A stretch of 64,000 nucleotides of DNA from Planctomycetota bacterium. GTDB lineage: Bacteria; Planctomycetota; UBA8108; SXIK01. Under the pieces are notes generated by a model that was not told where the DNA came from, did not search any database, and was given only the letters and a program-made list of their open reading frames with translations. The position numbers and the translations under genes are program-made. The DNA is taken from NCBI GenBank assembly GCA_965223265.1, contig OZ244999.1, forward strand, positions 1,792,001 through 1,856,000. Direction: 5' to 3'. This document shows positions 10,623 through 64,000 of the stretch, in pieces; the stretch's first letter is position 1, and every line of letters begins with the position of its first letter.

Positions 10623-10761
10623 GCCCCGAGACTGCTTCGAGCGCACTCCCGCAGTGACGGAAGCGGCGACCGACTCGGGGCGACAACTGACTGAGATCTC
10701 GACGCCCTGCGATCACGGCGTCGGTGACGACGGTGGAATCACCGGACGCTTACGAAGAGAG

Positions 10762-13700: not shown

Positions 13701-14365
13701 ACGTCGCTGGCAACCCGCTCATACGGCTCGATCCGTATGGGTTAGGATTCTGGGGCTGGGTCCAAGGTGGGCTCGACGTCGCCGGATTCATTCCGGGGAT
13801 TGGAATCGCTGCGGATCTTCTCAACGCAGGGATCGACGCGGCCCAGGGGAACTGGGCGGACGCCGGGCTGAACGTTGTCGCGGCGGTGCCTGGTTTTGGG
13901 GACGGTGTCAAGGCGGCGAAGATAGGCGTAAAGGTCGCACGTCGCGGCGGTCGTGAAGCTGCTGACGCCGCGCGGCGCGGAGTGAATCGGCGAGGAGCTG
14001 CTGGAGGTGGCAATCTTCGACAGACCCAAAAGAAAAAGACGGCCAGAGAGAAGCAGAGAGAGCGCAAGCGGAAGGAGGAGGAGAGAAAGCGTGAGGAGAA
14101 AAAGCGCGAATGCGACATTCTTAATGCCGCGTATCATGCCGTGTGTGACAACCTTTCTAAATGCAAACCTTGTTTGGACTGCAACGAGTATGATCCTATT
14201 ATCGCTGGCATTAAAGAATGTATCCGGTTGAGGGAGAAGTGGCTCAACAAAGGATGTTGCATGACCAACCGCGCAAACTGTTGGAGACAGCACAGACAAC
14301 AGATAAAGCAGGTGAAAAAACGCCTAAAGAAATGTAAGAAACGCAAGGAAGCTGCATGCCGATGA
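10762..14365 (+). pseudogene. Rhs polymorphic toxin, fragment 3 (YD repeats, Rhs core, PT-TG pre-toxin, Cys-rich cationic tip); open as a 1213-aa ORF from GTG 10724 inside the IS66 end
   Basis: YVYDAWNRLVKV, ERYEYTPYG, YTGQRRE, YHYRFREY...GRFLTRDP, NPLIRLDPYGL (PxxxxDPxG); then LDVAGFIPGIGIAADLLNAG...GNWADAGLNVVAAVPGFGD (PT-TG-like); last 84 aa contain 11 Cys. Confidence 0.92.
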
Positions 14366-37987: not shown

Positions 37988-38092
37988 CAGGGACGCGGCT
38001 GCCTGTCCGTGTTTTATCCATTTCGCGAGAGCGAATTCCTTTCTCGTCGGGCTGTTAGCCATGGAGTCTTTCTACAAGCTGGTCAGGAGCGG

Positions 38093-39856
38093 ATGGACGC
38101 ACTTTTCGGTTTTACAGGGCCAGCAGACCTAGCCCAACGGGAGCGCATGTCAGAGGAGCTGACGCATCGCGGCCGCAGATCAGTGCTGGTTCACGAGGAC
38201 GGACCGTGTACGCTCGGGCTGCGCACGGAGCTTGATGAGCCGATGCGAGGTCGCGTCGGTTCAGGGGTGTTTCACCAAGGTTCTCAGCACGACTCCCAAG
38301 CCATCGTACTGTCCGGATTTCTCACGCATCGAGATGCCGTGCCGACGCTGGCAGATCTTCTGGATTGGTATCGCAGCGAAGGGATTTCATTCGTCGAGCG
38401 ACTACGCGGCGCGTTCGTCTTAGCGATCAGCGACGGACCACGGCTCCACCTGGCTCGAGACGCCGCGGGTGAGCGTACTGTGTACTACGCCGCGCACCGG
38501 GGCCGCCTCATTTTCGCGAGCGAGCCTAAAGCGGTCGTCGCTGCCAGCGGGTTCTCCCGGCGGCTTCGCGCTGCAGCTGTCGCTCAGTACCTGACCTTCA
38601 GCTTCGTGCCGGAAGAAGGCACGATGCTTGAAGGCGTCTACGAACTCCGGCCGGGACACGTTCTGACGTTTGACAGCCAGGAATCGACTGGCGCGCTGCG
38701 TCAGCACCGTGTCTTCCACTTCGAAGACCCAACGACCAACGGTGACATTCCTGAGACAGAATGGGTCAGCAAGTTTCGTTCGGTCTTTCAGCAAGCCGTC
38801 TCCGAGCGATTGCCTTGCCAAGAGCCGGTCGGGGTATTTCTCTCCGGCGGTCTAGATTCCAGCGTCGTTGCCGCGGAGGTCGCTCGACAGCATCGCCATG
38901 TCGTCAAGACGTATTCGATCCATTTTGGCAAGAGGTATCCACATGAGCTCGAATTCGCCGGCGCAGTGGCTCGACGATGGAGGACTGAACATGAGGAAGT
39001 CTTCGTGCGCCCGAAGGACTTCCTACCTCGCTTGCGTCAGATCGTTTGGCATTTGGATGACCCGATTGGCGATCCAATCACCGTGCCGAATTTCGAGTTG
39101 GCCAAGCACGTCTCGCGCGACGTTCGCTGGGTCTTCAACGGTGAGGGAGGAGACCCATGTTTCGGCGGGCCGAAGAATATCCCGTTGCTGCTGACGCATT
39201 GGTACGGGGGGCTAAACCGTCCGGCCACCTTTCGAGAGAAAGCCTATCTCGAGTCCTATCGCCGTTGTTATGACGACTTGAACCAACTGTTGACGCCGGA
39301 TTTTCTCAGCCAACTTGATTTTGAGGCGGATCTCGAGAATGTCGTGAAGCCTTTTTTCGCAGCGCCTCGCCCAGTCAGATTTCTCGATAAATTGGCAGCG
39401 ATCAACATTCGCCTCAAAGGCGCGCATCTGATCCTGCCAAAGGTTGAACGCATGGCTGGCGCGTGGGGCTTGGCGCCGCTCGCGCCGCTGTTTGACGAGG
39501 ACGTTCTTCGCTTCAGTTTCGAGATGCCTGCCAGCTTGAGATTGCACCGGGGCATTGAAAAAGTCGTTCTCAAGAGAGCCTACGTCGACGATCTGCCGCC
39601 GGAGGTCATCGCTCGACCCAAAAGCGGCATGCGCGTTCCTGTCCACTACTGGTTCCGCAAGGAGATGCGACGATACGCGCGAAGTATTCTGCACCCGCGT
39701 GAGGTGCGCCGCGTTGGGATCTTCAACCCGGAGCGTGTTCGTCAGCTTCTAGACTACAACATTGAAAACAGCCCCGGGCGCTATGGACTGCGTCTGTGGA
39801 TGCTCGTCACGTTCGAGATTTGGCGTCGAATCGTCCTGGAGGGCGAGAGTGTCTAA
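38093..39856 (+). CDS. Asparagine synthetase B-like ATP-dependent amide ligase lacking the N-terminal Cys
   Basis: ATG 38093 with SD AGGAG; LTHRG, LRGAF, LARD..GER..YY, FASEPKA, GVFLSGGLDSS, GEGGD, EK.VLK.A...LPPEVIARPKSGM. Confidence 0.88.
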   Translation: MDALFGFTGPADLAQRERMSEELTHRGRRSVLVHEDGPCTLGLRTELDEPMRGRVGSGVFHQGSQHDSQAIVLSGFLTHRDAVPTLADLLDWYRSEGISFVERLRGAFVLAISDGPRLHLARDAAGERTVYYAAHRGRLIFASEPKAVVAASGFSRRLRAAAVAQYLTFSFVPEEGTMLEGVYELRPGHVLTFDSQESTGALRQHRVFHFEDPTTNGDIPETEWVSKFRSVFQQAVSERLPCQEPVGVFLSGGLDSSVVAAEVARQHRHVVKTYSIHFGKRYPHELEFAGAVARRWRTEHEEVFVRPKDFLPRLRQIVWHLDDPIGDPITVPNFELAKHVSRDVRWVFNGEGGDPCFGGPKNIPLLLTHWYGGLNRPATFREKAYLESYRRCYDDLNQLLTPDFLSQLDFEADLENVVKPFFAAPRPVRFLDKLAAINIRLKGAHLILPKVERMAGAWGLAPLAPLFDEDVLRFSFEMPASLRLHRGIEKVVLKRAYVDDLPPEVIARPKSGMRVPVHYWFRKEMRRYARSILHPREVRRVGIFNPERVRQLLDYNIENSPGRYGLRLWMLVTFEIWRRIVLEGESV

Positions 39857-39980
39857 CAGCGCACCAAAGTAGCAGACACGCCGCTGTGTGCCTGCCGGTG
39901 TTTCGCATCACGGCACGGGGAGCATGCCTGTTACTCTTCCAACAAGCTGCCAGTGCACACCGATGTGATTCGTTTGAGCG

Positions 39981-42900
39981 CTAGCAGGCGGGAGGCTCCG
40001 CACACGGCAGATCGTCGGGTGTCGGATCCGCTCCGCATGTCGCAGCGGGGGCGGGCAGCGGGCCGAAGCCGCGAAAGAGGTGGAGAATGAGAACCACGGC
40101 GTCGGTGAGCGTGTGGCGGCCGTCGTCGTTTGCGTCAGCCGCTGAGCCGCAGGCTGGTGGAGCGCCATCACGAAAAATGAAGTTGAGGAGCGCGATCGGG
40201 TCGGAGACGTCGACGGCACCATCGCCCGTCACATCGCCGCGCCGAAAGCGTGGCCTGTCGTCCGCCTCGTTGCGCTGATACGAGGTCACCTCGAGCCTGC
40301 GCAGGGGTTCGAAGTCGGCGTCGAGATAGGTTGCCGTGGCTTGGCCGTCACCCTCTGGCGCCGTCAGTTCAACAGCGTGCACCTGTTCAGCGATTTTGGC
40401 GACGTTCACCGGTGCGTCAAGCACGACCCAATAGCGCGGCGCAGCGTTGTGGCGAAACGCCGAATAGACGAGTTGAAAGTATTCATGGATCACTTGGTGA
40501 CTACCGCCAAGGGTTACCTCCGCGCGCACTAGGCTCGCCGGCCCGGTCTCGAACTCGCTCGAAGCCGGATCGTAGCGCTCTTCAAGCTGCAGCTGCGTAC
40601 CGTCTTCGAGCTGCGTCTCGATGCTCCAGAGAGGCAGCGACGCATAGCTGCACGAACCGTATTGAATGAGCGGCATGTCTTCGACGCGGGCGCGAAACAT
40701 CTCCGTTCCCGTTGAACGAGTGAAGAATGCTTCATCCAGCTCAGGCGAGGGGCCGATCGGTTCATCGCCCCGCGCCCGCAAGACGAGTGGCGTGACGAGT
40801 TCGATCGTCAAACTCCGATCGTCACCGAAATGAAAGTCTTGGCTGTAAGTGAAGCGATAGATGGTCTCCTCCGGTCGCGCCGCCGAGGGTGGAATCACCT
40901 GCACGCGCATCCGGCCAGGACCGACCGGGATCGCCTGCGTCTCCTCCGGACCGATGACGACCGCGTCGAAGAGGTCGACTTCGAACTCGGAGTCGAGCGT
41001 CGGTAGGGGTACTGGGCCAGCCCGGAAGCGCACGTGGCTTTTCAGCTCGTACTCCTCGCGTAGGCCACGGTTGACGCCGGCGACGGCAAAAACGCCGCAC
41101 ATTTCTGTGCCCGGAGGGATGAGCAGCTCGAACGTCGGTGTTGGTGGTGGTTTCTCTGTGAGTAGAAACGGACGTACTTGCTTGACGGCCAGAGACTCAT
41201 CCGGGAGAACCTTGAACTCCATGTCGAGGAGCACCTGATCGCGCGACACGCCTCCCAATTCGACCGCAAAGTTTTCATCGATGTGGGCCATGAGCGCGCC
41301 GAGCTCGCTGAGTTTGGCGTCAGACATGACGAATTCGCCATCCTCCACGAGAGTCGACGGCGAGGCACGAAGAATGCGCACGACCTCTCCCCCTGCAACT
41401 TCGAGGAGCGATTTTTCGGAGAGCACTCCAGGTGGTGGACTGACGACGCTCACGTCGCCCACTTGCGCCGTGATGACGTAGCGCCGATCGGCTGCGTTCG
41501 AGGGATTGCCAGTGAATGCGACGCCATTGACCTTCTCGTCGACGAAGGCCCGATTGACCAGCACCGCCATCGCAGACATCTCCTGCGGAATACCGAAGAA
41601 GTCTCGCTCCTCGTAGGCGCCAAAGTTCCACAGGCTTGACCAGACGCGCTTCAGAGCTCTCTCGATCGTACGTTCATTCTCTTGACGCTCATCGCAAAGC
41701 GATGGTCCCACATCGTCACCGTCAACTTGGTCGGCGATGCAGGCCGCCGTCGAGTCGTAGAGCCCAGCGCCGTTGAATTCGAGAGCGTCCTCGGCGTTTG
41801 AGGACGAGCGATGACGAACGCGGACGCTCCGCGGCGTACCGAGCACTTCCTCGATGCGCGCGACGATCGATTGAATGAGCACAGGATCGACGCGGCCCTC
41901 CGTCCGCATGTGCTGGCGGAGCGCGCGCAACGCTTCGACGCGCACCTGCGGATCGCTGCGAAACGCGCCGTCCGCGAAGAGCTCTAGGAGAGACTCCTCA
42001 TAGGTCACGGTCCGCCCGTCGACGATCGAGCCGATTGTGTTGGCGCGCAGAAATTCGAGATAGTGCGCAATCGGAACGGCAAAGCCGCGCTCGCGGTAAC
42101 GACTCCAATCGCCCGTCAGCACTGTTTGTAAGCGGGCAAGGTTCGATGCTTTGCCGCCGAACCGCGCTTCCGGTACGAACTCGGCCGTCGGCGCATCGAG
42201 TGCATTGATCTCTTCGAACGTTGCGAGGTGGCGAAAGTTTGGATCGATTTGAGGCTCGACTGAAATCGTGCGGCCGCGACTAGCCCAGAACTCCGTTGCC
42301 TCGTCGAGCGACGCGGCTTCGACGGTGAACGATGTTGTGTCGACGTCGAGGCGTACCAGCTGCCCGTCCCAGGACTGCAGGCGCTCGAGGGCCTGCGCGA
42401 CAAACGCATTCGGAGTGCCGCGGCGTGCCAGGCGCACGAGAAGGTGACTGAGCTCGCTCTGCGGTGCCCCAGTGATCACGCCGCCCACGATGCCGCGGAT
42501 GTCACTTGGCGCCTCATCGACGACGACGATGGTCTGCAGGCTCCACCCGCCGCTGCGGTCCGCGTCGTCAAACTCCTCGCGCGTCATGAGGCGTACACGA
42601 CCGAACGTGACACCGCGAACGTACGCCGTGTAGTCGCCACCTGACGACAACGTGTCGTCAAAGATCGGGAACCCTGGTGCGACCCAGTTCGCAGCACGCT
42701 CGCGCGCTGCGAATGTGCTCGGCGCATATCCGAGTGGGTCCGGAAGGAAAAGACCTTCTAGACGTCCGTGCAGGTCTCGTACTTCGTCGAGCGTCAACAG
42801 TTCTTGCGGGTCTGAGTTGTCAACGGCGACATCGAATCCGTAGACAACCTCTCCACTCTCGAGGCGTAGCTGCGTGATCGCTCCCGCGAAGTAGTCTCTT

Positions 42901-45413
42901 GTCGCCCGAACGGCTGTCAGTCGGTTGTATTCAGCGAGTGCCAGATTCGGGAAGCGCTCGGGAAACGCCGCCGCAAGGAATTCTTGATGCAGGCGATGGA
43001 TGCGGACGTTTTGAAACAACGTCGGCAGAAGTTCGGTGTCGTCGCCACGCGCCGGCGCGACGAACTTGGTGGCTCGCAGCCTCGCGTCCGCCGTGCGTGC
43101 GACTGATACGTTCTCAAAGTCGAGCTCAGTGCAGATCTTCTCAAGGAAGAGATCGGTGATGGGGCGCGGCGCGTTGTTTTGAAAGACGGTGACGTTCTGT
43201 CCTTGGCGGTTGCCCGTGGCGAGATCATCGTCGCCGTCGAGATCGATGTCGCCCACGGCAGAGAAGCGCGGGCCGAGCCCTGATGGCAAGACCTGTTCCT
43301 GGAGGAACGTGCCGTCGCCGCGGCCAAGTGCTAGCGCCACGGTGTCGGTCTTCTCACTCGTCGAAGCGACGTCGACGTTCCCGTCGCTGTTGGCGTCGAG
43401 GACGGTTATGTTCGTCGGTTCGTGCGTCAGAGGAAACGTCACCGCCGAGTCGAACGTGCCGTCCTCGAGCTGGAGCCACACGGCGATGTCGTTGGTGAAG
43501 TTGTTGCCCGTTGTCAAGTCAACGTTGCCGTCGCCGTTGAAGTCAGCCGCGGCGATCGAAATCGGGCGCCCTGAAACCAAGAGCATCTCCGGCGCCGAAA
43601 AGGTTCTTGCTCCCTGATTGAAGATGACCGAGACGTCTGCCGAGCCTCGGTTCGCCGTCGCTAGGTCAACGTGGCCGTCACCGTCGATGTCCGCAGCTGC
43701 GACCGAAACCGGAGAGTCCCCGACCAGATAGTTCGACTGCTCGTTGAACGTTCCGTCGCCGCCGTTGAACAAGACCGTGACGTGATCTGCGCCAGCGTTC
43801 GGCGCTAGGATTTCGGGAAAACCATCGCCGGTGACATCCGCGGTCGTTGCGCGCGGTCCAGCGCCCCGGGTCTTGTAGACGATCCGCTCTGAGAACCCTC
43901 CGTGCCCATCGTTGAAGAAGAGACTGATGCTGGCGCCGGCGTAGAATGCGAGATCGAGGTTGCCGTCCTGATCGTAGTCGCCCTTCGTCAAACTGAAAAA
44001 GAGATGGTTCCGTTGGAACAAGAACCCGCCGTCGAACGTCCCATCCCCGTGTCCTTTGAGGAATGAGAACGAGCCGTCGCCTGAGTTGGCCGTGACGATA
44101 TCCGGCAGGCCGTCGCCATCGAAATCGCCGATCGTTATGTCATGCGGCCGGGCGAACGCTCGGTATTTCGCCGGCGCGACGAGGGCGCGAACGCCGTCGT
44201 CGCTGTTCCAAGAGATCGTCAGGTGCGTCGGATTCCCGGCACCGGATATGAGATCCGGATCGCCGTCGTCGTCGAGGTCTTCGGCTGCGAACGCATCGGC
44301 TGCCACCGAGACATCTACCCGCCCCGCGAAGCTCCCGTCACCGCGATTCCATAGCACGCTGACAATGCCGGGCACGAATGCCCCGACCGCAAGGTCGACG
44401 TGGCCGTCGAGATCGAAGTCAGCACACGCGATGCGGCTTCCAGCAACGAAGTAGGTGGCCTTCTCGACGAAGTTGCCGCTAGATTCATTGATCCAGATTT
44501 TGAGAAGATTGCGTCCACCAGCGACCAAGTCGATGTCGCCGTCACCGTCGAAGTCGGCGGCGTCGGCGAATCGCAGACTGTCGCCAACTTCGATCTCGAG
44601 CGGGGCACCGAAGGCGCCGCTGCCGTCGTTCCAAAGGACGGAAAGCGTCAGGGACGTCTCGTTAGCGACGACGATATCTGTGCTGCCATCACCGTTGAGA
44701 TCGGCGACGGCGAATCGGAGCGGCTTGTCACCTACCGCATAGCCGGCGGCCTCACCGAAGTTGCCCCCGCCGCTGCCGAGAAGAACGAACATGCGGTCCT
44801 CTATGGGATTTGAAACCACCAGGTCGACATTGCCGTCGCCAGAGAGGTCGGCGATACGGATCTGGCGCGCGAAGTTCGGGAGCGGCAACGGAGCGGGCAC
44901 GGTGAAGTCGCCGGTCCCGGAGTTGACAAGGAACTGGAGGAACTCGGAGTGGACACTCACAAGGTCCACGTCGCCGTCGGAGTCGAGGTCGCCGGCAGCC
45001 AGATCGAAGACTCGGGCGTCAATGGAGAGCTGGCGGTTCGGCTCAGGATCAAGAGCACCCGGCGCTTGGCTGTAAAACAGTGCTACGTTTGATGCATCGG
45101 GCGGCAAGTCATCCGCGACCGCTAGGTCCGTCAGGCCATCGCCGTTGAAATCGCCGAGGGCGACGCCGCGCGGGGTACCTTGTGCACCGAGCGGCAGGGA
45201 TTCGCCCCCGACCGCGGACCGGAAACGCTCGCATTCGTCCGGAATCGAGTTGGCGTTACAGTCGGCGCTGGTCCCCGACGACAAATCGTCTCGGTCGGGA
45301 ATGCCGTTCAAGTTGCAGTCTGCGCGCAGCCTGGGACCGACGCAAAGCACGATCGCAAGGAGTGCTGACGCGGCGCTGACCAGAGCCTGGCCGTCGTAGC
45401 GACGCTCGATCAT
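39981..45413 (-). CDS. Secreted FG-GAP/VCBS + phosphohistidine + PEP/pyruvate-binding (ATP-grasp) dikinase-like + dockerin-like protein
   Basis: Signal peptide; DCN.N.IPD repeats; many GDFNGDG..DLA repeats; GVIT...SELSHLLVRLARRGTPN; FGGKASNL, GFAVP, RSSSNAED..FNGAGLYDS, KRVWSSLW, MAVLV, GVAFT, DMEFK, KQVRP; C-terminal FRRGDV.GDGAVDVSD. Confidence 0.88.
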   Translation of the reverse strand: MIERRYDGQALVSAASALLAIVLCVGPRLRADCNLNGIPDRDDLSSGTSADCNANSIPDECERFRSAVGGESLPLGAQGTPRGVALGDFNGDGLTDLAVADDLPPDASNVALFYSQAPGALDPEPNRQLSIDARVFDLAAGDLDSDGDVDLVSVHSEFLQFLVNSGTGDFTVPAPLPLPNFARQIRIADLSGDGNVDLVVSNPIEDRMFVLLGSGGGNFGEAAGYAVGDKPLRFAVADLNGDGSTDIVVANETSLTLSVLWNDGSGAFGAPLEIEVGDSLRFADAADFDGDGDIDLVAGGRNLLKIWINESSGNFVEKATYFVAGSRIACADFDLDGHVDLAVGAFVPGIVSVLWNRGDGSFAGRVDVSVAADAFAAEDLDDDGDPDLISGAGNPTHLTISWNSDDGVRALVAPAKYRAFARPHDITIGDFDGDGLPDIVTANSGDGSFSFLKGHGDGTFDGGFLFQRNHLFFSLTKGDYDQDGNLDLAFYAGASISLFFNDGHGGFSERIVYKTRGAGPRATTADVTGDGFPEILAPNAGADHVTVLFNGGDGTFNEQSNYLVGDSPVSVAAADIDGDGHVDLATANRGSADVSVIFNQGARTFSAPEMLLVSGRPISIAAADFNGDGNVDLTTGNNFTNDIAVWLQLEDGTFDSAVTFPLTHEPTNITVLDANSDGNVDVASTSEKTDTVALALGRGDGTFLQEQVLPSGLGPRFSAVGDIDLDGDDDLATGNRQGQNVTVFQNNAPRPITDLFLEKICTELDFENVSVARTADARLRATKFVAPARGDDTELLPTLFQNVRIHRLHQEFLAAAFPERFPNLALAEYNRLTAVRATRDYFAGAITQLRLESGEVVYGFDVAVDNSDPQELLTLDEVRDLHGRLEGLFLPDPLGYAPSTFAARERAANWVAPGFPIFDDTLSSGGDYTAYVRGVTFGRVRLMTREEFDDADRSGGWSLQTIVVVDEAPSDIRGIVGGVITGAPQSELSHLLVRLARRGTPNAFVAQALERLQSWDGQLVRLDVDTTSFTVEAASLDEATEFWASRGRTISVEPQIDPNFRHLATFEEINALDAPTAEFVPEARFGGKASNLARLQTVLTGDWSRYRERGFAVPIAHYLEFLRANTIGSIVDGRTVTYEESLLELFADGAFRSDPQVRVEALRALRQHMRTEGRVDPVLIQSIVARIEEVLGTPRSVRVRHRSSSNAEDALEFNGAGLYDSTAACIADQVDGDDVGPSLCDERQENERTIERALKRVWSSLWNFGAYEERDFFGIPQEMSAMAVLVNRAFVDEKVNGVAFTGNPSNAADRRYVITAQVGDVSVVSPPPGVLSEKSLLEVAGGEVVRILRASPSTLVEDGEFVMSDAKLSELGALMAHIDENFAVELGGVSRDQVLLDMEFKVLPDESLAVKQVRPFLLTEKPPPTPTFELLIPPGTEMCGVFAVAGVNRGLREEYELKSHVRFRAGPVPLPTLDSEFEVDLFDAVVIGPEETQAIPVGPGRMRVQVIPPSAARPEETIYRFTYSQDFHFGDDRSLTIELVTPLVLRARGDEPIGPSPELDEAFFTRSTGTEMFRARVEDMPLIQYGSCSYASLPLWSIETQLEDGTQLQLEERYDPASSEFETGPASLVRAEVTLGGSHQVIHEYFQLVYSAFRHNAAPRYWVVLDAPVNVAKIAEQVHAVELTAPEGDGQATATYLDADFEPLRRLEVTSYQRNEADDRPRFRRGDVTGDGAVDVSDPIALLNFIFRDGAPPACGSAADANDDGRHTLTDAVVLILHLFRGFGPLPAPAATCGADPTPDDLPCAEPPAC

Positions 45414-45569
45414 TTCCGTCCGCTTCCAACGGGCTGTTGTTAAGGACCAGGCCGAATCGTTGCTCGACGGCGCGGATTCAGCGGGGGATAGAGTAGTATA
45501 TTCTTCCAGATCGCCTTTCGATTGTCACGCCTTGGCGGAAGGCACGGAGCGGAGACCGAGGAACGGACC

Positions 45570-48500
45570 ATGCACGAGCGGCTGCTTTCTCGCAACATTC
45601 AACTCATGGTGGTGAGATCGCTCGTCGTCGTGATCACCCTCATGCTCGCGGGGACGTCCAGCGCTGTGGTTCGTGCTGCCGACGTCCGTGATCAGCTCGG
45701 TCGCCTCGAGATCAAACGCGGCATCTGCGTTCTTCTTGACGTGCGTGACGGGGATTATCCTCTCCAAATCGCACGCGCGAGTGATTGCATCGTCTACGCG
45801 CAGTCGCCGCACGAAGCGATCGTCCGTGCTTTACAGAAGGCCGCTATCGACGCCGGCATGTTCGGTACCCGCGTCTACGTCGAGCGCGGCAGCCTTGACC
45901 GGATACACCTGGCCGACAACCTTGCCGACGGCGTGATTGTCAACGTCACAGAGTCCCAGCGGCTCAGCCCACTTGCCCGCAGCGAGATTCTGCGTGTGCT
46001 TCATCCGGGTGCCAAGGCGATCCTCGGCACCGAGATTCTGACGAAACCCCGTCCTGATGGTGCCGACGACTGGGGCCATCCATATCACGGACCGGACAAC
46101 AATCCGCAATCGAGAGATCAAAACGCGCGCGCACCGTTTCTCACGCAGTTTCTCAGTGAGCCGTGGTATGCGCCGATGCCGCAGATCACGGTCGCGTCTG
46201 GTGGACGCGTGTTCAAAGCGTTCGGCCACGTCGCTATGAAGAAGCGTGAGTGGCCATGGCTCAACGTGTTGGTGGCGCTCAACGGATACAATGGCACACC
46301 GCTTTGGAAGCGGCAGTTGAGTCCGGGTTTCATGTTCCATCGAAGCACGCTCGTCGCGACGCCGGAAACCGTGTACCTCGGTGACGACAAGTCGACAAAG
46401 CTACTTGACGCGCGAACGGGGGAAGTGCGCGACGAAATCGTTGTCCCGAGAGAACTCGATCCTGACGGCGTCTGGAAGTGGATGGCGCTCGAACGTGGAG
46501 TTCTGTACGCCTTAGTCGGCGCGAAAGAACGACCAGATGTTGTCCTGCGCGGACGGCGGGATGCGCCCGGTTGGCCCTGGAGTGGAATGGGGCGTGGATA
46601 CGCTCGCGAGACTCCATACGAGTGGGGATTCGGTCGGACTTTACTGGCGATCGACCTGCGAACCAAAGACGTGCTGTGGAGCCACAAATCATCGACACCG
46701 ATTGACAGTCGAGCTGTGTGCAGTACAGACGGTCGCATCTACTTCTACAGCCACCAGAGCTACTTGGCTTGCATAGACGCAGCAAGCGGTGAGATCTGTT
46801 GGCAGACCTCTGACCCAGATCTCTTGGCAGCCATCGGAGAACACGACGGCGCGCAGACACCGCCGAAAGGCTTTTCTAGTAGTGCGTACGTCAAAGCCAA
46901 CTCCCGGGGGATCTACTTCGCTGGTCCTCAGAGAACCGCGCTTGTGGCAGTGAACCCGCGGAGCGGCGAGCTGCTGTGGACGTACCCGCACGGAAACTAT
47001 CAGCTCCTCCTTCGCGACGATGGTCTCTACGCCATGGGTCGCATGGAAACCAGCAAGGTCTTCGAGTATAGCACCGGCGCTGTGTTGGCCGACCTCGAGT
47101 GCTATCGTGGCAACTGCACGCGCGCCACCGGCGGTGTCAATGACATCTATACACGCGGCTACCGCCACACTGGCACGATGCGTCTTGACCTTTCCGGGGA
47201 GAAGCCGAACGCGCGTCGACTCCCCCTCATGCGGCCAGCGTGTCAGGATGGGGTGATCATTTCGGAGGGCCACCTTTATTGGGGACCGTGGATGTGCGAC
47301 TGCAATCATTCTTTGGTTGGCGTTGTTTGTCTCTCGCCTGCAGGTGACTTCGACTTTTCTCAGCCTGCCGCTGAAGCGGAGCGACTGGAGGTCATGTCTG
47401 CGGCGAAATATAGCGAGGCCTCCGAGCCGCTGTCGAACGATTGGCCGAGCTATCGTGGTGGTCCCACTCGACTGGCAAGCACCGACGCCGACCTTACCGC
47501 GAAGAGCGAAGAGCTGTGGAGAATCGGCGGGAGGGGCGTCGAGCCGACGGCGCCAGTCGTTCAAGGATCGCTCGTTGTGTGGAGCGGACTCGACGGCATC
47601 GTGCACGGGGTCGACGTCACGACGGGCGAACGACGTTGGACCTTCGCGACTGGCGGCGCCGTGCGCTTTCCCCCGGAACTGGCGTACGGGAGCGTGTATG
47701 TCGGCTCGGGCGACGGTTGGGTCTATTCGCTCTCGCAGCAGACCGGCGAGCTGCAGTGGCGATTTCGCGCCGCACCAGCTGAGCGCAAGATTGCGGTTCA
47801 CGGCCAACTCGTCTCGACGTGGCCGGTGGGCAGCGGCGTGCTTGTCGCAGATGGAGTCGTGTATGCTGCGGCGGGTATTGCCAGTCATGACGGCACCCAC
47901 GTGTACGCACTGGATGCCCGCACAGGAAAAATTCGCTGGCAGAACAACACGTCGGGGCATCTGCTTGGAGACGACCAAGTCAGCGGCATCAGCGTGCAGG
48001 GGCACCTGTTGCTGCACGACGATCGCCTCTATCTCGCCGGCGGCAACGTGATATCTCCTGCCGTCTACGATGTCGCGAACGGGCGCTGCTTGAACGAGAT
48101 CTCCAGCGAATGGTTCGTCGATCCGGGCAACCTCACAGAGGAGTTTCCTAGCCGGCCGCACGACTCGATGTTCTTGCGCGCACCGCGTGGGCGCGAACTC
48201 TCTCTCGTCGATGGCGCTGTCCGCGTCTTCGACGAGCTCCTCTATGCGCCGCCGCAATACCAACGTGCCCGTTACTTCGGTGGCCGCTTTCTCCACGCCT
48301 CACGTGGAGATGTCGTCGTGCGTGCGGAAGCCGGGCGTGTCCTACGGCTCACGTCAGGCGAACGCGCACGTGCTCGGAGGCGGGCACGCGCCGAGCGGCC
48401 GGCGCGCAGCAGTACACTGGCTGACGAGCTCGGCGACGGCGATGTGGTCTGGTCACGCGGCGGCTTGGTTCAGCCGCTGGGGCTCGCGCTGGCTCGGAAC

Positions 48501-48896
48501 GCTGCTGTCGTCGTCGGCACGCACGGCTCCGGCGCGGCTGTATCAAACGCTCAGGTGCAGGTGCTGGGTATCGATGACGGAGAGTTGTTGTGGGACGCGA
48601 CGCTCGATGCCGAGCCGGTTGCGTGGGGGGTGGCGATTGATCGCCGAGGCTGCGTTGTGGTCACTACCGCCGACGGAGGTGTTGCTTGCTTCGGCGGAGG
48701 CGCCGCCGCGGCGACGCGGGCACCGTCGGAGGACAGAGACGGAGGCAGAGACGGAGACGGAGACAGAGACGGAGACGGAGACAGAGACGGAGACGGAGAC
48801 AGAGACGGAGACGGAGACAGAGACGGAGACGGAAACAGAGACGGAGGCAGAGACGGAGGCAGAGACGGAGACGGAAACAGAGACGGAGAGACATAG
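45570..48896 (+). CDS. Secreted SAM-methyltransferase-like + PQQ-like beta-propeller (BamB-type) protein with a DRDGDG low-complexity tail
   Basis: Signal peptide; RGICVLL...LADNLAD...EILRVLHPG; DDWGHPYHGPDNNP; LVALNGYNG.PLW; DWPSYRG...R; many D..TG...W.F repeats; VSTWPVGSGVLV.DG.VY.AAG. Confidence 0.82.
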   Translation: MHERLLSRNIQLMVVRSLVVVITLMLAGTSSAVVRAADVRDQLGRLEIKRGICVLLDVRDGDYPLQIARASDCIVYAQSPHEAIVRALQKAAIDAGMFGTRVYVERGSLDRIHLADNLADGVIVNVTESQRLSPLARSEILRVLHPGAKAILGTEILTKPRPDGADDWGHPYHGPDNNPQSRDQNARAPFLTQFLSEPWYAPMPQITVASGGRVFKAFGHVAMKKREWPWLNVLVALNGYNGTPLWKRQLSPGFMFHRSTLVATPETVYLGDDKSTKLLDARTGEVRDEIVVPRELDPDGVWKWMALERGVLYALVGAKERPDVVLRGRRDAPGWPWSGMGRGYARETPYEWGFGRTLLAIDLRTKDVLWSHKSSTPIDSRAVCSTDGRIYFYSHQSYLACIDAASGEICWQTSDPDLLAAIGEHDGAQTPPKGFSSSAYVKANSRGIYFAGPQRTALVAVNPRSGELLWTYPHGNYQLLLRDDGLYAMGRMETSKVFEYSTGAVLADLECYRGNCTRATGGVNDIYTRGYRHTGTMRLDLSGEKPNARRLPLMRPACQDGVIISEGHLYWGPWMCDCNHSLVGVVCLSPAGDFDFSQPAAEAERLEVMSAAKYSEASEPLSNDWPSYRGGPTRLASTDADLTAKSEELWRIGGRGVEPTAPVVQGSLVVWSGLDGIVHGVDVTTGERRWTFATGGAVRFPPELAYGSVYVGSGDGWVYSLSQQTGELQWRFRAAPAERKIAVHGQLVSTWPVGSGVLVADGVVYAAAGIASHDGTHVYALDARTGKIRWQNNTSGHLLGDDQVSGISVQGHLLLHDDRLYLAGGNVISPAVYDVANGRCLNEISSEWFVDPGNLTEEFPSRPHDSMFLRAPRGRELSLVDGAVRVFDELLYAPPQYQRARYFGGRFLHASRGDVVVRAEAGRVLRLTSGERARARRRARAERPARSSTLADELGDGDVVWSRGGLVQPLGLALARNAAVVVGTHGSGAAVSNAQVQVLGIDDGELLWDATLDAEPVAWGVAIDRRGCVVVTTADGGVACFGGGAAAATRAPSEDRDGGRDGDGDRDGDGDRDGDGDRDGDGDRDGDGNRDGGRDGGRDGDGNRDGET
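48731..48892 (+). repeat. Hexamer/18-mer tandem repeat (GACAGAGACGGAGACGGA)n encoding (DRDGDG)n
   Basis: Direct reading of 48731-48892; purine-rich GAC-GGA / GAC-AGA units in frame up to the stop. Confidence 0.92.
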
Positions 48897-59269: not shown

Positions 59270-62200
59270 TCAACGACAACCAGTAGGCGCAGCGCAGCCG
59301 AGACGCCGATCGAGCGTCGGTTCGCCGCGGCCGCAGGCTGGGTAGGGGGCCACTGGCGGCGGTGCGGAACCGAAGAGGTGATTGAGCAGCGCCAGTGGAT
59401 CTGAAATGTCGACGCCGTCGTCGCCGTTGACGTTCGTGGAGGCGACACAGTTTGGGGAAGTGTTTCCTTGGAACATCCAAATCAACATGCAAAGCGCGTC
59501 CGCGATGTCGACGCCACCGTCGTCGTTACAGTCGCCGCGAAGAAACATCGGCGCGAGATGTGTTTCGCAGGGTACCGACAAGCTGGCGCGAAAAGTTTGA
59601 GACATTATAGTGCCGCCGCTCGCCGGGTCGATCAGACGCACGAGAATCTGGTCGATTTCCGCCGCGCCGTCGCTGACGGTGAAGGTCGCTGTCGCCGTCC
59701 CGGTTCCCTGGAGGTAGAGCTGCGACGTCCGCGCCTCAACCGTCAACGAGCTCGCCCTCCAGTCCGCGACTGGTGCAGCGACGATCTGCACAGGTGCCGG
59801 CGCGTTTTCGAACTTCACTGAGACTGTGACGCTTTCGCCGTATTCGATGCAATCGGTGGCTGCAGTGCTCATCGTGAGCTGCGACAGGGTCGCGTCGCAA
59901 ACGTCCCCAATACCGTCTCCATCGACGTCTTCTTGGCGGGCGTTGGCGACGAACGGGCAGTTGTCTTCGGAATCGCAGACACCGTCCGCATCGCTGTCGC
60001 CACCATCGTTTGCGCACGCGCCAGCGTCAATCGCTTCGCCCAGTCGCCACAACCGAAGAACGAGTTCGCCTGTCGCGGAGTGGACGTCGCCACTCACGTA
60101 GTCGCCCTCGGCGGAGTTCGTGGGGAGTGCCGTGAGATCGACTCGTCGCGGCGCGCGATGGGTCGGCGCGCCTTCGGTGGTGTTCAGCTCGAATGCGCGC
60201 TCGGCCCACCCGAGGTTTTCGACCACGCCCGATTCGGCGTCTGTTCTCCAGCTCGACACTCGGAGCTGACCGAGAGTGTCGACCGTGGCGCTGATGGCGA
60301 CAGTGCTGGTGACGCGGTCGAGGGCGAACGTCCGCACCTTCACGCCGTTCAAGGTGGCTGCGGCGCGAAAGTCCGGCGTGAAGAGCTTGCGATAGCCGTA
60401 GTCGAACAAGCGGTATGCGTCGCCGCTGCGGTCGTCCGACTGCTGCAGCGCCACGTTGAGCGTGCGGCCGAGCCGTGTCGTCTGCATCACCAGACAATTG
60501 GTGCAAAACGGCGCACCTTCGAACCCCGGAACCGTGACGCCGAGGAGGCCGTTCTTCCAGCCTTCGACACCGGGATAGCTTGCAAAGCCGCGATCGAGGC
60601 TCCAGCACTTGACAGGCTCTACAGCGCCAACCGCCAGATCGAGGTCGGTGCACTCACACGCGGAGTAGTCGCTCGGACCGGTGGTTTCACGTACGAGGCT
60701 GTACTGCCATGCAGACCGCCACAGCGTCACTTGATCTTGCGGCGTGGTCACAACCCCAGCTGCCGGGTGGCTGTAAGCCGTGTCGCTGAGACCGAGGAGC
60801 GACGCCTTGCGGTTCATGAGGCCGACGAAGGCTTCCTTCTTATCGCCTTCGTGTCCGTACGCCTGGGCTACGTGCTCTGCTATCGCCACCGAAGCGCGGT
60901 TTCCCGAGGGACGCATCATCCCGTAGAGGAGCGTCTCCAGCGTCACGCAGTCTCCCTCCTCGAGGAGAGGGCTCATCTTGCTGCCGCCCGCAGCGGCGGC
61001 GACTGCACTGATCTCGACGTTGTCCGCGAGGCTGAGCCCGAGCGCCGGGTCTTCCAGCGCCTCCGCCGTGAGCAACAACGTCATGACTTTGGCGACGCTC
61101 GCCGCGTGCACGCTCGCCGGTTCGCCAGGAGGCATTTCGAGGAACATCTCGCCGGCACGGACGCCGTGCTGCGACTCGGTGAGCCCGTCCGTCAGGATCG
61201 CACGGACGCGTCGACGCACGCCTTGAAACCAATGCTGTGTGCCGGAGCTGCGCAGACCGGCGCCGCTGGCAGCCGCGTAGATCACCCGGATGGAGCCGAC
61301 GTCCACACGCTCCTTGAGATCCTGTTTCGGCGCGCTCACCACGAGGTCATCGATGCCGTCGCCGTTGAGGTCTCCAGCAGCCGAGTTTCGACCGAAGTGG
61401 GCGTTCAGCTCACGGTTGTCACTCCAGGCGTAGACGAATTGCACGCCTGTCGCAGCCAATCCCGTCTCCGCTGCATAGATCACATGCACCGCGCCGATCG
61501 GAACCCCGCTGCCGCTGGGTTCACTCGGCGACCCGGCCACCAGGTCGCATCTGCCGTCGCCGTTGAAGTCGCCGCTCGTCAGGCTCCAGCCGAAGAAGTC
61601 GGAGTCTTCGCTTGGATCCTTGCCGAGTTCGTCCTCGCTCCACAGTTGGCTGTTGGTTGCGAACAGTCCTCCGGCGAAGCCGTAGAGCACGTGGACGACG
61701 CCGACGTTGGCGGCGTTCAAGTCCTCGAATCGCTCGTTGGGGACACCGATGGCGAGATCGTCGCGAGCGTCACCGTTGAAGTCTCCAGCTGTGAGACTGA
61801 GCGCGAAGCGGTCGTTTGCTTCAGCCACTTCGTCGATGCCGGCGCTGTCCTGATGGAAGACTCGGTCGTTGTCGGCGGAGAGGCCGAACGCTGACCCGTA
61901 CACGATGTGCACCGCGCCGGCGTCGGTCGCACCGGTGGCCTCGATGTCTTCTCGTGGCATGCCAACAGCCAGATCCCCGAAGCCGTCACCATTGAAATCG
62001 CCGGAGGCCAATGAATCGCCGTAGTTGTCGCCGTTCTCCGCTTTCGGCGCCATGCCGCTGACGTCAGCATGAAGGAGAAAGCTCCCAGCCGACACCAGGC
62101 CAGCTGCAGATCCATAGACGATCTGGACGGCGCCAGCGTTCGCGGCGGCGCCGATGTTCGCTCCCGGTATACCCATGGCGAGGTCGTGAAAGCCGTCACC

Positions 62201-63721
62201 GTCGAAATCATTCGCCGTCAGGGAGAGGCCGAACCGATCCGACGTCTCAGCCGCTGCCTCTATGCCGTCAGAGTTGCGGTACCACAGTTGACTGCCGGTG
62301 CCCTGGAGACCGCCGTCAGGATTGCCGTTGAGCACGTGGACAACCCCGGCGTCGATGACGCCGTCGACGTCCTCACGTGGGGCACTGACGGCGAGATCGC
62401 GAATACCGTCGCCGTTAAAGTCCGCCGCGACGAGCGCGTGACCGAACTCGTCGCCAGGCTCTGAAGCGCCTTGGACACCGGGACTCGCTTGACTCCAAGC
62501 CTGGTCTTCCTTCGAGCCTATGAGCCCGCGCGGCGAGGATCCGTAGATCACATCGACCATTCCACGAGCTTCGCTGTCGCCTGAAATTCCGACCGCTACG
62601 TCCTCGACGTTGTCACCGTCGAAATCCGCGATGGCCACTGACGATCCGTAGTAGGAGAAATCGGCACCGTTCTCCGCGCGCGAATCGGTCAGGGCCGGGT
62701 CGTCCAGGCGGATGCCAAAGTGGGCCAAGGGCCCAGCCGCGATGTCCGTTAAGTCAACTTGATCTTTGAGATGGTCGCTGAGCTGAAGCGAGGTGGGCGC
62801 CTTCGCATCGGTGCCTTGCCACGCCTGCCAGGAGACGAGCTTGGCAAGGCCGACGTCACGCACCGCCGTGACAAATCCCCGCCGACTCAACGGCGCGGCG
62901 GCGAACTGCTCAACCTGTTCGGCGACCTCAACGCTGCCGCGCAGGTCTTTCCCCGTGCTAGTGCTACTGACTTGCACGATTTCGCCGTTGGCTGTCGTCT
63001 CGATCTGCAGCGACGCCAGGAGGCCGTTTTCGGTGCGGTAGGTGAGAATCCACGTTCCGGGAACGCCGAGGTGTGTGACTTCGAGATCCCCGTCGAAAGC
63101 GTCGTCCGCCTCGAGCTCGAGGGTGAAATCGTTGACGGTGGACAAGCTTGGAGGCTGTGTCGTGACGCGGAGGAGAATCGCCCGCACGTGGGTCTCACCA
63201 TCGGTGCCGATTCCAGCGACGGGGACAAGAACGTTGTACATTGGGGTGATCAGCTGCGGCGTTCGTTCGGACGCGATCGCGTAGTCTCGGACGAGCAGAT
63301 CTGTGCTTGCGGCATCATCGAGCTGCGTGAGCTCGCCGTCCCTTCCCAGTGCGAACAGATCGAGAACGAGCGACTCGTCCTCAGATATGCGACCGAAAAG
63401 GAAGGGAGAGACAGTCGTCGGGCGACCGTGGCGGAGGGCATGCAGCCGTAAGTAGGCGCCTGCGGCCGGCGACGACTCGTCGAGAGCAACCGGTTCGAGA
63501 GCGAGTCCGGCGAGCGTCCAGCTTGTGACGACGTATTCTTCACCGGAACCGACTGCGGTGACGATGTGAGGTGCAACCGAGCCTTGAGGCATTCCCCCGA
63601 GGTGCGTAACGTCGACCTCCTCGACTTCGCCGAGGGCGGGGACGCAACAGAAACACAGGATGCTCGCCAGGAGCTGTCGAATCGGCGGCAACGGAAAACG
63701 GCGCGAGGGTGCGGAATTCAT
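59270..63721 (-). CDS. Secreted integrin-alpha-like FG-GAP + peptidase S11 (D-Ala-D-Ala carboxypeptidase-like) + TSP3 + dockerin-like protein
   Basis: Signal peptide; about 7 FG-GAP repeats (FGHALVAADFNGDG.RDLAVSAP.E); ASVAKVMT (SxxK), LETLLYGMMRPSGN.A, FV.LMN.KA..LGL.DT, TTPQD, GWKNG; DSDADGVCDSEDNCP..ANARQEDVDGDGIGDVCD; FLRGDCNDDGGVDIAD. Confidence 0.88.
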   Translation of the reverse strand: MNSAPSRRFPLPPIRQLLASILCFCCVPALGEVEEVDVTHLGGMPQGSVAPHIVTAVGSGEEYVVTSWTLAGLALEPVALDESSPAAGAYLRLHALRHGRPTTVSPFLFGRISEDESLVLDLFALGRDGELTQLDDAASTDLLVRDYAIASERTPQLITPMYNVLVPVAGIGTDGETHVRAILLRVTTQPPSLSTVNDFTLELEADDAFDGDLEVTHLGVPGTWILTYRTENGLLASLQIETTANGEIVQVSSTSTGKDLRGSVEVAEQVEQFAAAPLSRRGFVTAVRDVGLAKLVSWQAWQGTDAKAPTSLQLSDHLKDQVDLTDIAAGPLAHFGIRLDDPALTDSRAENGADFSYYGSSVAIADFDGDNVEDVAVGISGDSEARGMVDVIYGSSPRGLIGSKEDQAWSQASPGVQGASEPGDEFGHALVAADFNGDGIRDLAVSAPREDVDGVIDAGVVHVLNGNPDGGLQGTGSQLWYRNSDGIEAAAETSDRFGLSLTANDFDGDGFHDLAMGIPGANIGAAANAGAVQIVYGSAAGLVSAGSFLLHADVSGMAPKAENGDNYGDSLASGDFNGDGFGDLAVGMPREDIEATGATDAGAVHIVYGSAFGLSADNDRVFHQDSAGIDEVAEANDRFALSLTAGDFNGDARDDLAIGVPNERFEDLNAANVGVVHVLYGFAGGLFATNSQLWSEDELGKDPSEDSDFFGWSLTSGDFNGDGRCDLVAGSPSEPSGSGVPIGAVHVIYAAETGLAATGVQFVYAWSDNRELNAHFGRNSAAGDLNGDGIDDLVVSAPKQDLKERVDVGSIRVIYAAASGAGLRSSGTQHWFQGVRRRVRAILTDGLTESQHGVRAGEMFLEMPPGEPASVHAASVAKVMTLLLTAEALEDPALGLSLADNVEISAVAAAAGGSKMSPLLEEGDCVTLETLLYGMMRPSGNRASVAIAEHVAQAYGHEGDKKEAFVGLMNRKASLLGLSDTAYSHPAAGVVTTPQDQVTLWRSAWQYSLVRETTGPSDYSACECTDLDLAVGAVEPVKCWSLDRGFASYPGVEGWKNGLLGVTVPGFEGAPFCTNCLVMQTTRLGRTLNVALQQSDDRSGDAYRLFDYGYRKLFTPDFRAAATLNGVKVRTFALDRVTSTVAISATVDTLGQLRVSSWRTDAESGVVENLGWAERAFELNTTEGAPTHRAPRRVDLTALPTNSAEGDYVSGDVHSATGELVLRLWRLGEAIDAGACANDGGDSDADGVCDSEDNCPFVANARQEDVDGDGIGDVCDATLSQLTMSTAATDCIEYGESVTVSVKFENAPAPVQIVAAPVADWRASSLTVEARTSQLYLQGTGTATATFTVSDGAAEIDQILVRLIDPASGGTIMSQTFRASLSVPCETHLAPMFLRGDCNDDGGVDIADALCMLIWMFQGNTSPNCVASTNVNGDDGVDISDPLALLNHLFGSAPPPVAPYPACGRGEPTLDRRLGCAAPTGCR

Positions 63722-64000
63722 TGTGACTGAGACTCCCTTTGTGCTTGTGCTGTGGCCCGGATCGGCTGACGGGGCCACAAGGGAATCGGGGGGTCGGAGA
63801 TTCTTGATGGTTCATGCTTTCGGCCGCTGTTAGCGTCATTTCGGCGGCACAGGTGCGTCCCACGCCCCCAAAGCTTGGCTGCCTCGTCGAGAAGACAGGG
63901 CTTTGTCGCTCGAGGGGCGCGCTCGCCGGGGCCATGCACGCGCACGCGCCAGGCGCCCAACGTCGTAGCGAGAGCAACGTTGGAGAGATGTAGGTGTGGA

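Follow-up and report, generated by a model that had tools for sequence, protein, structure and literature searches.

The question raised by this locus is what a predicted phosphotransferase that consumes ATP could be doing outside the cytoplasm. The locus lies in a stretch of 64,000 nucleotides (the window) from a Planctomycetota bacterium (assembly GCA_965223265.1, contig OZ244999.1, positions 1,792,001 to 1,856,000 of the forward strand) and encodes a protein of 1810 amino acids (aa; P0001). A first-pass annotation had described a secreted module resembling glucan water dikinase (GWD) at 41165..42620, inside a protein with FG-GAP repeats and a dockerin. Our analysis places the protein in a family in which a constant engine, formed by an N-terminal domain (N-domain), a phosphohistidine swivel domain (His domain) and an ATP-grasp domain, is joined to swapped FG-GAP propellers. 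The N-domain, the 35 copies of the family in this genome and the swapping of propellers had all been missed. The engine is like that of GWD, but the protein is not a GWD, as the helical central domain and the CBM45 modules are absent. The reading we favour, at a probability of about one half, is that of an exported water-dikinase-type phosphotransferase acting on an extracellular polymer, with the propellers as its address.

Fold and conserved residues of the engine

A model of aa 752–1428 was obtained with AlphaFold, with a mean predicted local distance difference test (pLDDT) score of 93.3. The ATP-grasp domain (model residues 308–670) matches rifampin phosphotransferase (RPH; 5hv1) with a Z-score of 29.2 and a root mean square deviation (rmsd) of 2.4 over 294 aligned residues; other structural matches are HpeI and pyruvate phosphate dikinase (PPDK). 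The segment of aa 927–1034 (model residues 176–283) matches the swivel domains of 2e28 (Z 8.6, rmsd 2.5, 99 aligned), enzyme I (5woy, Z 7.8) and 7cnr (Z 7.5), and His990 (H239 of the model) begins a helix that spans model residues 239–247. Because both folds are matched in the model, the placement of the His domain before the ATP-grasp domain is real, in agreement with the first-pass annotation, whose motifs lie where it had put them in a reading frame open over all 1810 aa. Its account of FG-GAP repeats and an ATP-grasp domain with no pyruvate barrel also agrees with Pfam, which reports FG-GAP_3 in 13 stretches, PPDK_N at aa 1084–1417 (E 1e-15) and Dockerin_1 at aa 1726–1779 (above cut-off). 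At E<=1, Pfam finds no PEP-utilizers mobile domain (PF00391), pyruvate-binding barrel or carbohydrate-binding module (CBM) on the protein, and PF00391 matches none of the 35 paralogs. The NCBIfam model of phosphoenolpyruvate (PEP) synthase scores far under its cut-off (29 versus 598 bits), as do the PigC/RedH models.

Residue conservation was counted over 74 aligned homologs and 35 paralogs. His990, Lys1088, Arg1202, Glu1208, Asp1209 and Ser1221 are invariant in 74/74 homologs, whereas Glu1399, Gln1412 and Arg1414 are found in 71/74, the other three being gaps. All the catalytic-site residues checked in the paralogs, which did not include Ser1221, are present in 35/35. His990 is therefore not a chance occurrence, and the ATP-binding residues are not degenerate. 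By alignment of motifs to RPH-like proteins, the conserved residues of the ATP site presumably correspond to Lys22, Arg117, Thr136 and Glu297 of RPH (PMC4844700). An Asp-rich insert in the ATP-grasp domain is flanked by Cys1225 (74/74) and Cys1240 (73/74), a pair that would suit an oxidising compartment.

Homology among family members starts at aa ~752 (window 43160). The complete unit, with the N-domain, starts some 175 residues upstream of the module as first delimited. Stand-alone members of the family (644–754 aa, the minimal ones ~650–710 aa) consist of a signal, the N-domain, the His domain and the ATP-grasp domain, and end just after the KQxRP motif. The N-domain is modelled confidently (pLDDT 94.5) as an alpha/beta domain. 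Among the 74 homologs it conserves His809 in 71 (three gaps), Lys783 in 68, Tyr829 in 70 and Arg839 in 69. Three distant subfamilies, with profile matches of 98%, 96% and 37%, retain this Lys and His as well. From this conservation it is probably the acceptor-binding domain. Foldseek returned nothing for it at E<=0.001, the best VIA match had Z 3.4, and Pfam and the PDB sequences gave no match, which is not proof of a new fold; a faint match to polyphosphate kinase (Z 3.0, E 0.18) is at noise level. The predicted complex of the N-domain with the His domain scored 0.25 against a mark of 0.32, and was counted neither for nor against.

At locus L184 of the same genome (8069377–8072029, minus strand), two adjoining genes, both lacking the His and ATP-grasp domains, encode a dockerin joined to the N-domain in one case and to the C-domain in the other. 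The pair is either a relic or a free-standing use of the N- and C-domains.

Relationship to glucan and phosphoglucan water dikinases

As a control set, real bacterial genes for GWD and phosphoglucan water dikinase (PWD) were sought among 301 genomes of the phylum. Seven (G068, G074, G141, G160, G194, G210 and G226) carry a gene resembling GWD together with one resembling PWD. The two are neighbours in at least five of these genomes and lie next to a glycosyltransferase in both loci examined; the PWD-like protein has at its N-terminus a TIM barrel similar to xylose isomerase. The control GWDs are cytoplasmic and belong to a large family named alpha-glucan, water dikinase by JGI; one matches the central domain of potato GWD1 (9HA9) at E 1.8e-72, which serves as a positive control, and CBM45 (PF23166) was found in both GWD-type controls.

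The His and ATP-grasp part of the exported family aligns to the bacterial GWD/PWD profile at 98.2% (E 5.7e-14), His on His. When the His domain is taken by itself, the profile match is 93% to GWD and 91% to PWD-like proteins, compared with 31% to PEP synthase (PPS), 9% to PPDK, 9% to RPH-like proteins and 2% to enzyme I; it is less clear-cut in the distant subfamily c (GWD 68%, RPH-like 53%). Profiles of the ATP-grasp domain do not by themselves separate the candidates (RPH-like E 3e-28, PWD-like E 3e-22, at unequal depth). PF22973, the Pfam model of the GWD His domain, gives hits below cut-off only, in 21/40 homologs, and scores at most 24 bits in the exported family versus 55–117 for real bacterial GWD/PWD. 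Across the genome at E<=1 it hits 25 places, all of them His domains of paralogs (25/35) and none on the 1810-aa protein. Among the ESM Atlas neighbours of the module, which are PPDK_N clusters, a eukaryotic GWD cluster appears at rank 27 (0.91).

The phylogeny of the ATP-grasp domain was computed from 58 rows and 302 columns, with the larger groups thinned to roughly one row in two and without eukaryotic GWD or TalE; it uses the bacterial GWD/PWD homologs because no eukaryotic GWD was among the 120 matches listed, and its labels 'RPH' and 'PWD' were assigned by model and motif. The exported family forms one clade (100/99) that is sister to GWD plus PWD, with a Shimodaira–Hasegawa-like approximate likelihood ratio (SH-aLRT) of 96 and a bootstrap of only 69. 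A clade of the exported family with the RPH-like set was rejected (approximately unbiased (AU) test, p 0.0013). The His and ATP-grasp domains are thus closer to GWD/PWD than to PPS, PPDK or RPH, as the first-pass annotation had supposed.

The kinship does not extend to the rest of the protein. In GWD1, two CBM45 modules are combined with a central domain of 20 helices and with His and ATP domains (PMC13553574). The exported family shares with GWD1 (EC 2.7.9.4) and PWD (EC 2.7.9.5) the order acceptor domain–His domain–ATP-grasp, the LSH..R motif around the His and the presence of N-terminal binding modules ahead of the engine. In contrast to the all-helical central domain of GWD1 (PMC13553574), it has an unrelated alpha/beta domain of 174 aa, which has no profile match to 43 bacterial GWDs (E 0.85) and no sequence match to 9HA9 or 9QVI. 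It also carries a C-domain, a dockerin and the Cys/Asp insert, and CBM45 and CBM20 were not found on the 1810-aa protein or on any of 40 homologs. The ATP-grasp domain is internally permuted in the bacterial GWD set but not in the exported family, and GWD and PWD are cytoplasmic or plastidial. With the GWD central domain and CBM45 missing, starch or glycogen has no specific support as a substrate, so the label of a glucan water dikinase stands for the kinship and order of the His and ATP-grasp domains and falls for the remainder. Two starch papers treat GWD as a eukaryotic enzyme (PMC12892837; 10.64898/2026.09.25.754361), and the term 'bacteri' is absent from the accessible text on GWD1 (PMC13553574).

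RPH and its relatives (PigC/HapC, HpeHI) have the same ATP-grasp fold, the same ATP-site residues and a three-part design with an exchangeable acceptor domain. However, the order in RPH is ATP-grasp, rifampin-binding acceptor domain and C-terminal His domain (PMC4844700), and these enzymes are cytoplasmic. PEP synthase and PPDK share the PPDK_N domain, the swivel fold and phosphohistidine chemistry; they differ in placing the ATP-grasp domain first, the His domain in the centre and a pyruvate barrel last, and ordinary PPS and PPDK genes are present elsewhere in the genome. By its description, TalE, a phosphoramidate-forming kinase that is PPS/PPDK-like and has an acceptor other than pyruvate, differs in being a biosynthetic-cluster enzyme acting on a dipeptide (PMC6482885). 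The superfamily also yields regulatory kinases, such as VadK (PMC13400623).

A constant engine on variable propellers

The genome, a single contig of 9.18 Mb, holds 35 intact paralogs in uninterrupted open reading frames (ORFs), which total 189 kb or 2.1% of its length. Thirty-three are of about 1,800 aa, and two of about 1,080 aa lack the propellers. Over 528 paralog pairs, the median identity is 28% in propeller 1 and 32% in propeller 2, rising to 45% in the N-domain and 57–58% in the His and ATP-grasp domains, with 39% in the C-domain. Near-identical engines (96–99%) occur among neighbouring paralogs, in 10 pairs among 9 genes (three clusters), in which the propellers are only 29–45% identical. 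The shared DNA tracts are 96–98.5% identical, start at the N-domain and extend for either 2.0–2.1 kb (N-domain, His domain and ATP-grasp) or 3.2 kb (also the C-domain and dockerin). The tract borders mark the borders of the engine independently, and because the 2.0-kb tracts span all three domains, the N-domain is part of it.

In the homogenised pairs, the ATP-grasp domain shows 1–8 nonsynonymous differences over ~830 sites versus 12–32 synonymous differences over ~265 sites. The proportion of differing nonsynonymous sites (pN) in this domain within the tracts is 0.001–0.009 versus 0.04–0.12 for synonymous sites (pS), and pS in the propellers is saturated at ~0.7. This pattern indicates that the tracts arose recently, by gene conversion or by duplication of a cassette, and are under strong purifying selection. 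Assembly collapse was considered as the cause of the near-identical engines and rejected, as the tracts differ at 31–141 scattered, mostly synonymous sites. Short-read contigs aligned to one cluster are of low depth over the propellers, and one copy of the engine is covered by single contigs of greater depth; a collapse of near-identical copies would give this picture. The depth cannot be read as copy number, and the reads may come from the source sample itself. The engine of the 1810-aa protein is at most 61% identical to that of any paralog, and in other genomes the two tandem pairs that were compared show no homogenisation (70–74% identity).

Propeller 2 carries two fixed residues at equivalent blade positions, His424 (115/116) and Arg716 (109/116), and propeller 1 has no comparable fixed non-structural residue. 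Among FG-GAP proteins of the genome that lack the engine, only one of the best 30 has both motifs. Propeller 2 also has a Tyr at position 667 in 72/116 sequences (Thr in the 1810-aa protein) and an Arg or His at 736. Together these residues could form an anion-binding or catalytic site of its own.

One paralog has an ordinary PEP synthase gene directly upstream on the same strand (L121:3377-11465; 2536377–2544467 of the same genome, plus strand). A functional link was rejected, since the arrangement occurs in 1/35 paralogs and is taken as chance.

Probable export, the dockerin-like tag and CotH kinases

Signal peptides were judged by a heuristic. A script located a hydrophobic stretch ahead of the mature-start motif in 30 of the 35 paralogs, with a best mean over 12 residues of 1.98–3.08, and in the remaining five the stretch was seen by eye. 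The same heuristic finds a hydrophobic N-terminal core in 81% of the close homologs (n = 206) and 93% of the distant homologs (n = 112), compared with 1% of the true bacterial GWDs (n = 109). Export of the 1810-aa protein, part of the original proposal, is likely on these grounds.

The genome contains 324 dockerin-like ORFs but only three cohesin hits above cut-off. The same tag is found on 48 of its 53 CotH-family ORFs. CotH is an ATP-using Ser/Thr kinase whose source of ATP has been called an unanswered matter (PMC7821199). Like the exported dikinases it is expanded in this genome; it differs in its unrelated protein-kinase-like fold, in transferring the gamma-phosphate and in having no phosphohistidine swivel. 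CotH occurs in 26 of 31 genomes searched, with 16–51 matches in relatives of the same order (12 in one of them), and four genomes of family f6 have neither CotH nor the dikinase family; relatedness and genome size are confounding factors in this co-occurrence. Adjacency of the two families is not significant (9/35 dikinase genes within 10 kb versus 5.2–5.7 expected). A putative CotH-like gene, judged by its motifs, stands beside a stand-alone dikinase in three deltaproteobacterial or myxococcal loci (L035:9329-10597, L040 and L043).

Proposed activity and alternatives

According to the mechanism we propose, the protein would first be exported by the Sec system, after which the ATP-grasp domain would bind Mg-ATP. 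By analogy with the chemistry of the family, His990 would take the beta-phosphate of ATP, with release of AMP and phosphate (Pi). The His domain would then swing to the N-domain, where a site formed by Lys783, His809, Tyr829 and Arg839 may hold the acceptor group to which the phosphate is passed. The variable FG-GAP propellers would play the role that CBM45 plays in GWD, directing a constant engine to one polymer or another outside the cell or on its surface. Our first guess for the acceptor is a glycan other than starch, and our second a surface protein. The dockerin-like tag might anchor the protein in the same exported layer as about 300 other proteins of the cell.

Several observations weigh against this proposal. 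Many members lack propellers (2/35 paralogs and most myxobacterial and verrucomicrobial members), an observation that would suit a small-molecule acceptor just as well. The role of the N-domain is argued from conservation, the domain being small and having no fold match, and one locus of the same genome encodes it without His or ATP domains, so that it can stand alone. The Gln of the 'VQ.M' motif of PPS and RPH is replaced by Thr, Asn or Ser. One homolog (P0174) has a CHAT (protease) domain ahead of the engine and no obvious signal peptide. No source of extracytoplasmic ATP was identified; the ATP/ADP translocase PF03219 was not found in the genome (92% complete), but its control matched nowhere, so the result is uninformative. 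Finally, among 88 loci compared there is no conserved operon, and no neighbour family recurs across unrelated genomes apart from dockerin-tagged proteins; genomic context therefore names no substrate.

The propeller-less members also speak for the first alternative, in which the family are exported kinases of a small molecule (an antibiotic, a phenol or a peptide amine, as for RPH, HpeHI and TalE) and the propellers and tag serve for display only. Most characterised non-metabolic members of the superfamily act on small molecules (PMC4844700, PMC6482885, PMC12167813), and RPH and HpeI are the best structural matches of the ATP-grasp domain. Nevertheless, the AU test rejects a clade with the RPH-like set, the His domain matches theirs at only 9%, and if the substrate were selected by the engine alone, carrying it in identical form on different propellers would be redundant. 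We regard this alternative as rather unlikely.

Less likely again is an exported protein that destroys or senses ATP, converting ATP from the environment or from prey to AMP and two Pi through the phosphohistidine, with water as the acceptor. GWD1 shows such a side reaction (PMC13553574). An ATP hydrolase would fit the lack of an identified ATP exporter, and many carriers are Myxococcota, a largely predatory group. An invariant extra domain with Lys, His and Arg and 35 diversified copies would, however, be unneeded for this purpose, for which simpler nucleotidases exist.

A true alpha-glucan kinase, phosphorylating starch or glycogen outside the cell to aid its breakdown as GWD and PWD do, draws on the His-domain profiles, the sister position in the tree and the shared domain order. 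It is improbable given an N-domain that does not align to GWD, the missing starch-binding modules and helical domain, and the lack of recurring glycoside-hydrolase neighbours in the 88 loci.

The reverse direction, in which AMP, Pi and a high-energy donor held by the N-domain would yield ATP for the exported CotH kinases, seems slightly more improbable still. The PEP synthase reaction is reversible, CotH is found together with the close dikinase subfamily among the relatives, both being missing from the four f6 genomes, and the faint polyphosphate kinase match points the same way; that match is at noise level, however, polyphosphate is by our estimate too weak a donor for ATP formation, the co-occurrence is confounded and the adjacency is not significant. 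The idea of an inactive, structural component of the surface whose fold is a relic, or of a cytoplasmic enzyme whose N-terminus is spurious, finds an opening only in the heuristic nature of the signal-peptide calls, and is the least credible option in view of the invariant catalytic residues, the strong purifying selection and the contrast in hydrophobic N-termini with bacterial GWDs.

Returning to an exported dikinase with a polymer acceptor, a broader picture can be drawn tentatively, and we hold it more doubtful than the core proposal: cells of this kind might carry out extracytoplasmic phosphorylation on a large scale, with ~88 exported kinases of two unrelated folds (35 dikinases and 53 CotH). 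Recombination would keep one dikinase engine while swapping the propellers that choose its targets, and surface or environmental polymers would be phosphorylated through an acceptor domain of undescribed fold. If so, bacteria would have an extracellular equivalent of starch phosphorylation, directed at other polymers.

Distribution, annotation and implications

The family was found in 27/31 genomes searched, counting the source genome, with 1–10 matches in each of the others. HMMER searches over representatives at 50% identity gave 767 clusters at E<=1e-30 and 1,839 at E<=1e-10, and a scan of genome collections gave 423 confirmed places. Record titles, returned for 78 of these 423 loci, name Planctomycetota, Verrucomicrobiales, Myxococcota, Deltaproteobacteria, Anaerolineae and Kiritimatiellae; the few titles of Bifidobacterium, Enterobacterales and Rickettsiales look like mislabelled bins. 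The distant stand-alone subfamily includes the cultured Sandaracinus amylolyticus, Nibricoccus aquaticus and Oleiharenicola lentus, which make the family testable. Searches of phage and plasmid collections gave no match. Across 40 homologs scanned, the fusion partners of the engine are dockerin, LTD, Lcl_C, BNR, Fn3 and beta-helix domains, which are extracellular modules and so speak for export; the CHAT domain is the one exception. Two very large proteins, of 3,336 and 6,419 aa (P0185, P0186), contain the engine as well.

Members are labelled 'PEP/pyruvate-binding domain', as the first-pass annotation expected of automated pipelines, and also 'hypothetical', PEP synthase or 'rifampicin phosphotransferase'. 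The last two are misannotations, which can inflate resistance counts. No description of the exported family was found in a literature search whose coverage excluded most subscription journals and supplements (that of a GWD-phylogeny preprint could hold bacterial sequences).

The dikinases described in the cited papers act inside cells or plastids, and enzymes that use ATP are unexpected in an exported compartment. An exported family of 767 clusters implies that many uncultured bacteria, and some cultured ones, have a source of ATP in the periplasm or at the cell surface, a question it has in common with CotH (PMC7821199). Should the acceptor be a polysaccharide, the family would add a route by which glycans are attacked or remodelled, and a supply of robust secreted glycan kinases. 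A sister group of the starch dikinases also bears on the origin of GWD, as one His and ATP-grasp engine appears to have been fitted with different acceptor domains.

Gene layout and surroundings

The gene stands alone between a convergent and a divergent neighbour (Table 1), and its GC content of 0.62 is like that of the flanks. A scan of 39800–40050 for promoters and terminators found nothing. The C-domain has no match in Pfam, the ESM Atlas or the PDB sequences. Matches to TcdB_toxin_midN and the Tc-toxin B subunit were rejected, being weak or below cut-off and inside the FG-GAP repeats, where they reflect repeat similarity.

Table 1. Features of the gene, its neighbours and the control loci (window coordinates unless a locus is named).
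Feature	Position	Strand	Remarks
Whole gene, 1810-aa protein (P0001)	39981..45413	-	uninterrupted ORF
Predicted Sec signal peptide, aa 1-31	45321..45413	-	heuristic: basic n-region, hydrophobic core, L-R-A ahead of conserved mature start DCN
Cys/Asp-rich lead motif, aa 32-62, DCNxNGxxD x2	45228..45320	-	also on other exported proteins of the same genome
FG-GAP propeller 1, 7 repeats, aa ~71-405	44199..45203	-	most variable part among paralogs
FG-GAP propeller 2, 7 repeats, aa ~406-748	43170..44198	-	variable, with fixed His424 and Arg716 at equivalent blade positions
Engine N-domain, aa 752-925, alpha/beta, putative acceptor site	42639..43160	-	conserved Lys783, His809, Tyr829, Arg839, Gly844
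Phosphohistidine swivel domain, GWD/PWD type, aa ~926-1050	42264..42638	-	fold and profile matches
His990 codon, predicted phospho-carrier	42444..42446	-	conservation
ATP-grasp (PPDK_N) domain, aa ~1051-1420	41154..42263	-	Lys1088, Arg1202, Glu1208-Asp1209, Ser1221, Glu1399, Gln1412, Arg1414
C-domain, no family match, aa ~1421-1715	40269..41153	-	conserved YxAxRHN motif, His1655 in 35/35 paralogs
Dockerin-like C-terminal tag, aa ~1716-1810	39984..40268	-	Dockerin_1 at 1726-1779
Asparagine-synthase-family gene, convergent neighbour	38009-39856	+	
PQQ-type propeller gene, divergent neighbour	45522-48896	+	
Bacterial GWD/PWD-like control locus	L113:6443-13508	-	
Bacterial GWD/PWD-like control locus	L114:1618-8841	+	

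The 3' end of the PQQ-type propeller gene (48686–48896, plus strand) is a short tandem repeat of DGDRDG units followed by other simple repeats. A protein of 1502 aa encoded at 59270–63778 (minus strand), with FG-GAP repeats, a peptidase S11/beta-lactamase-like domain, a TSP3 repeat and a weak dockerin, is another exported enzyme on the same chassis. The left part of the window holds a DDE transposase (4463–5953, minus), an IS66 transposase (9063–10622, plus) and an RHS-repeat protein (10724–14365, plus).

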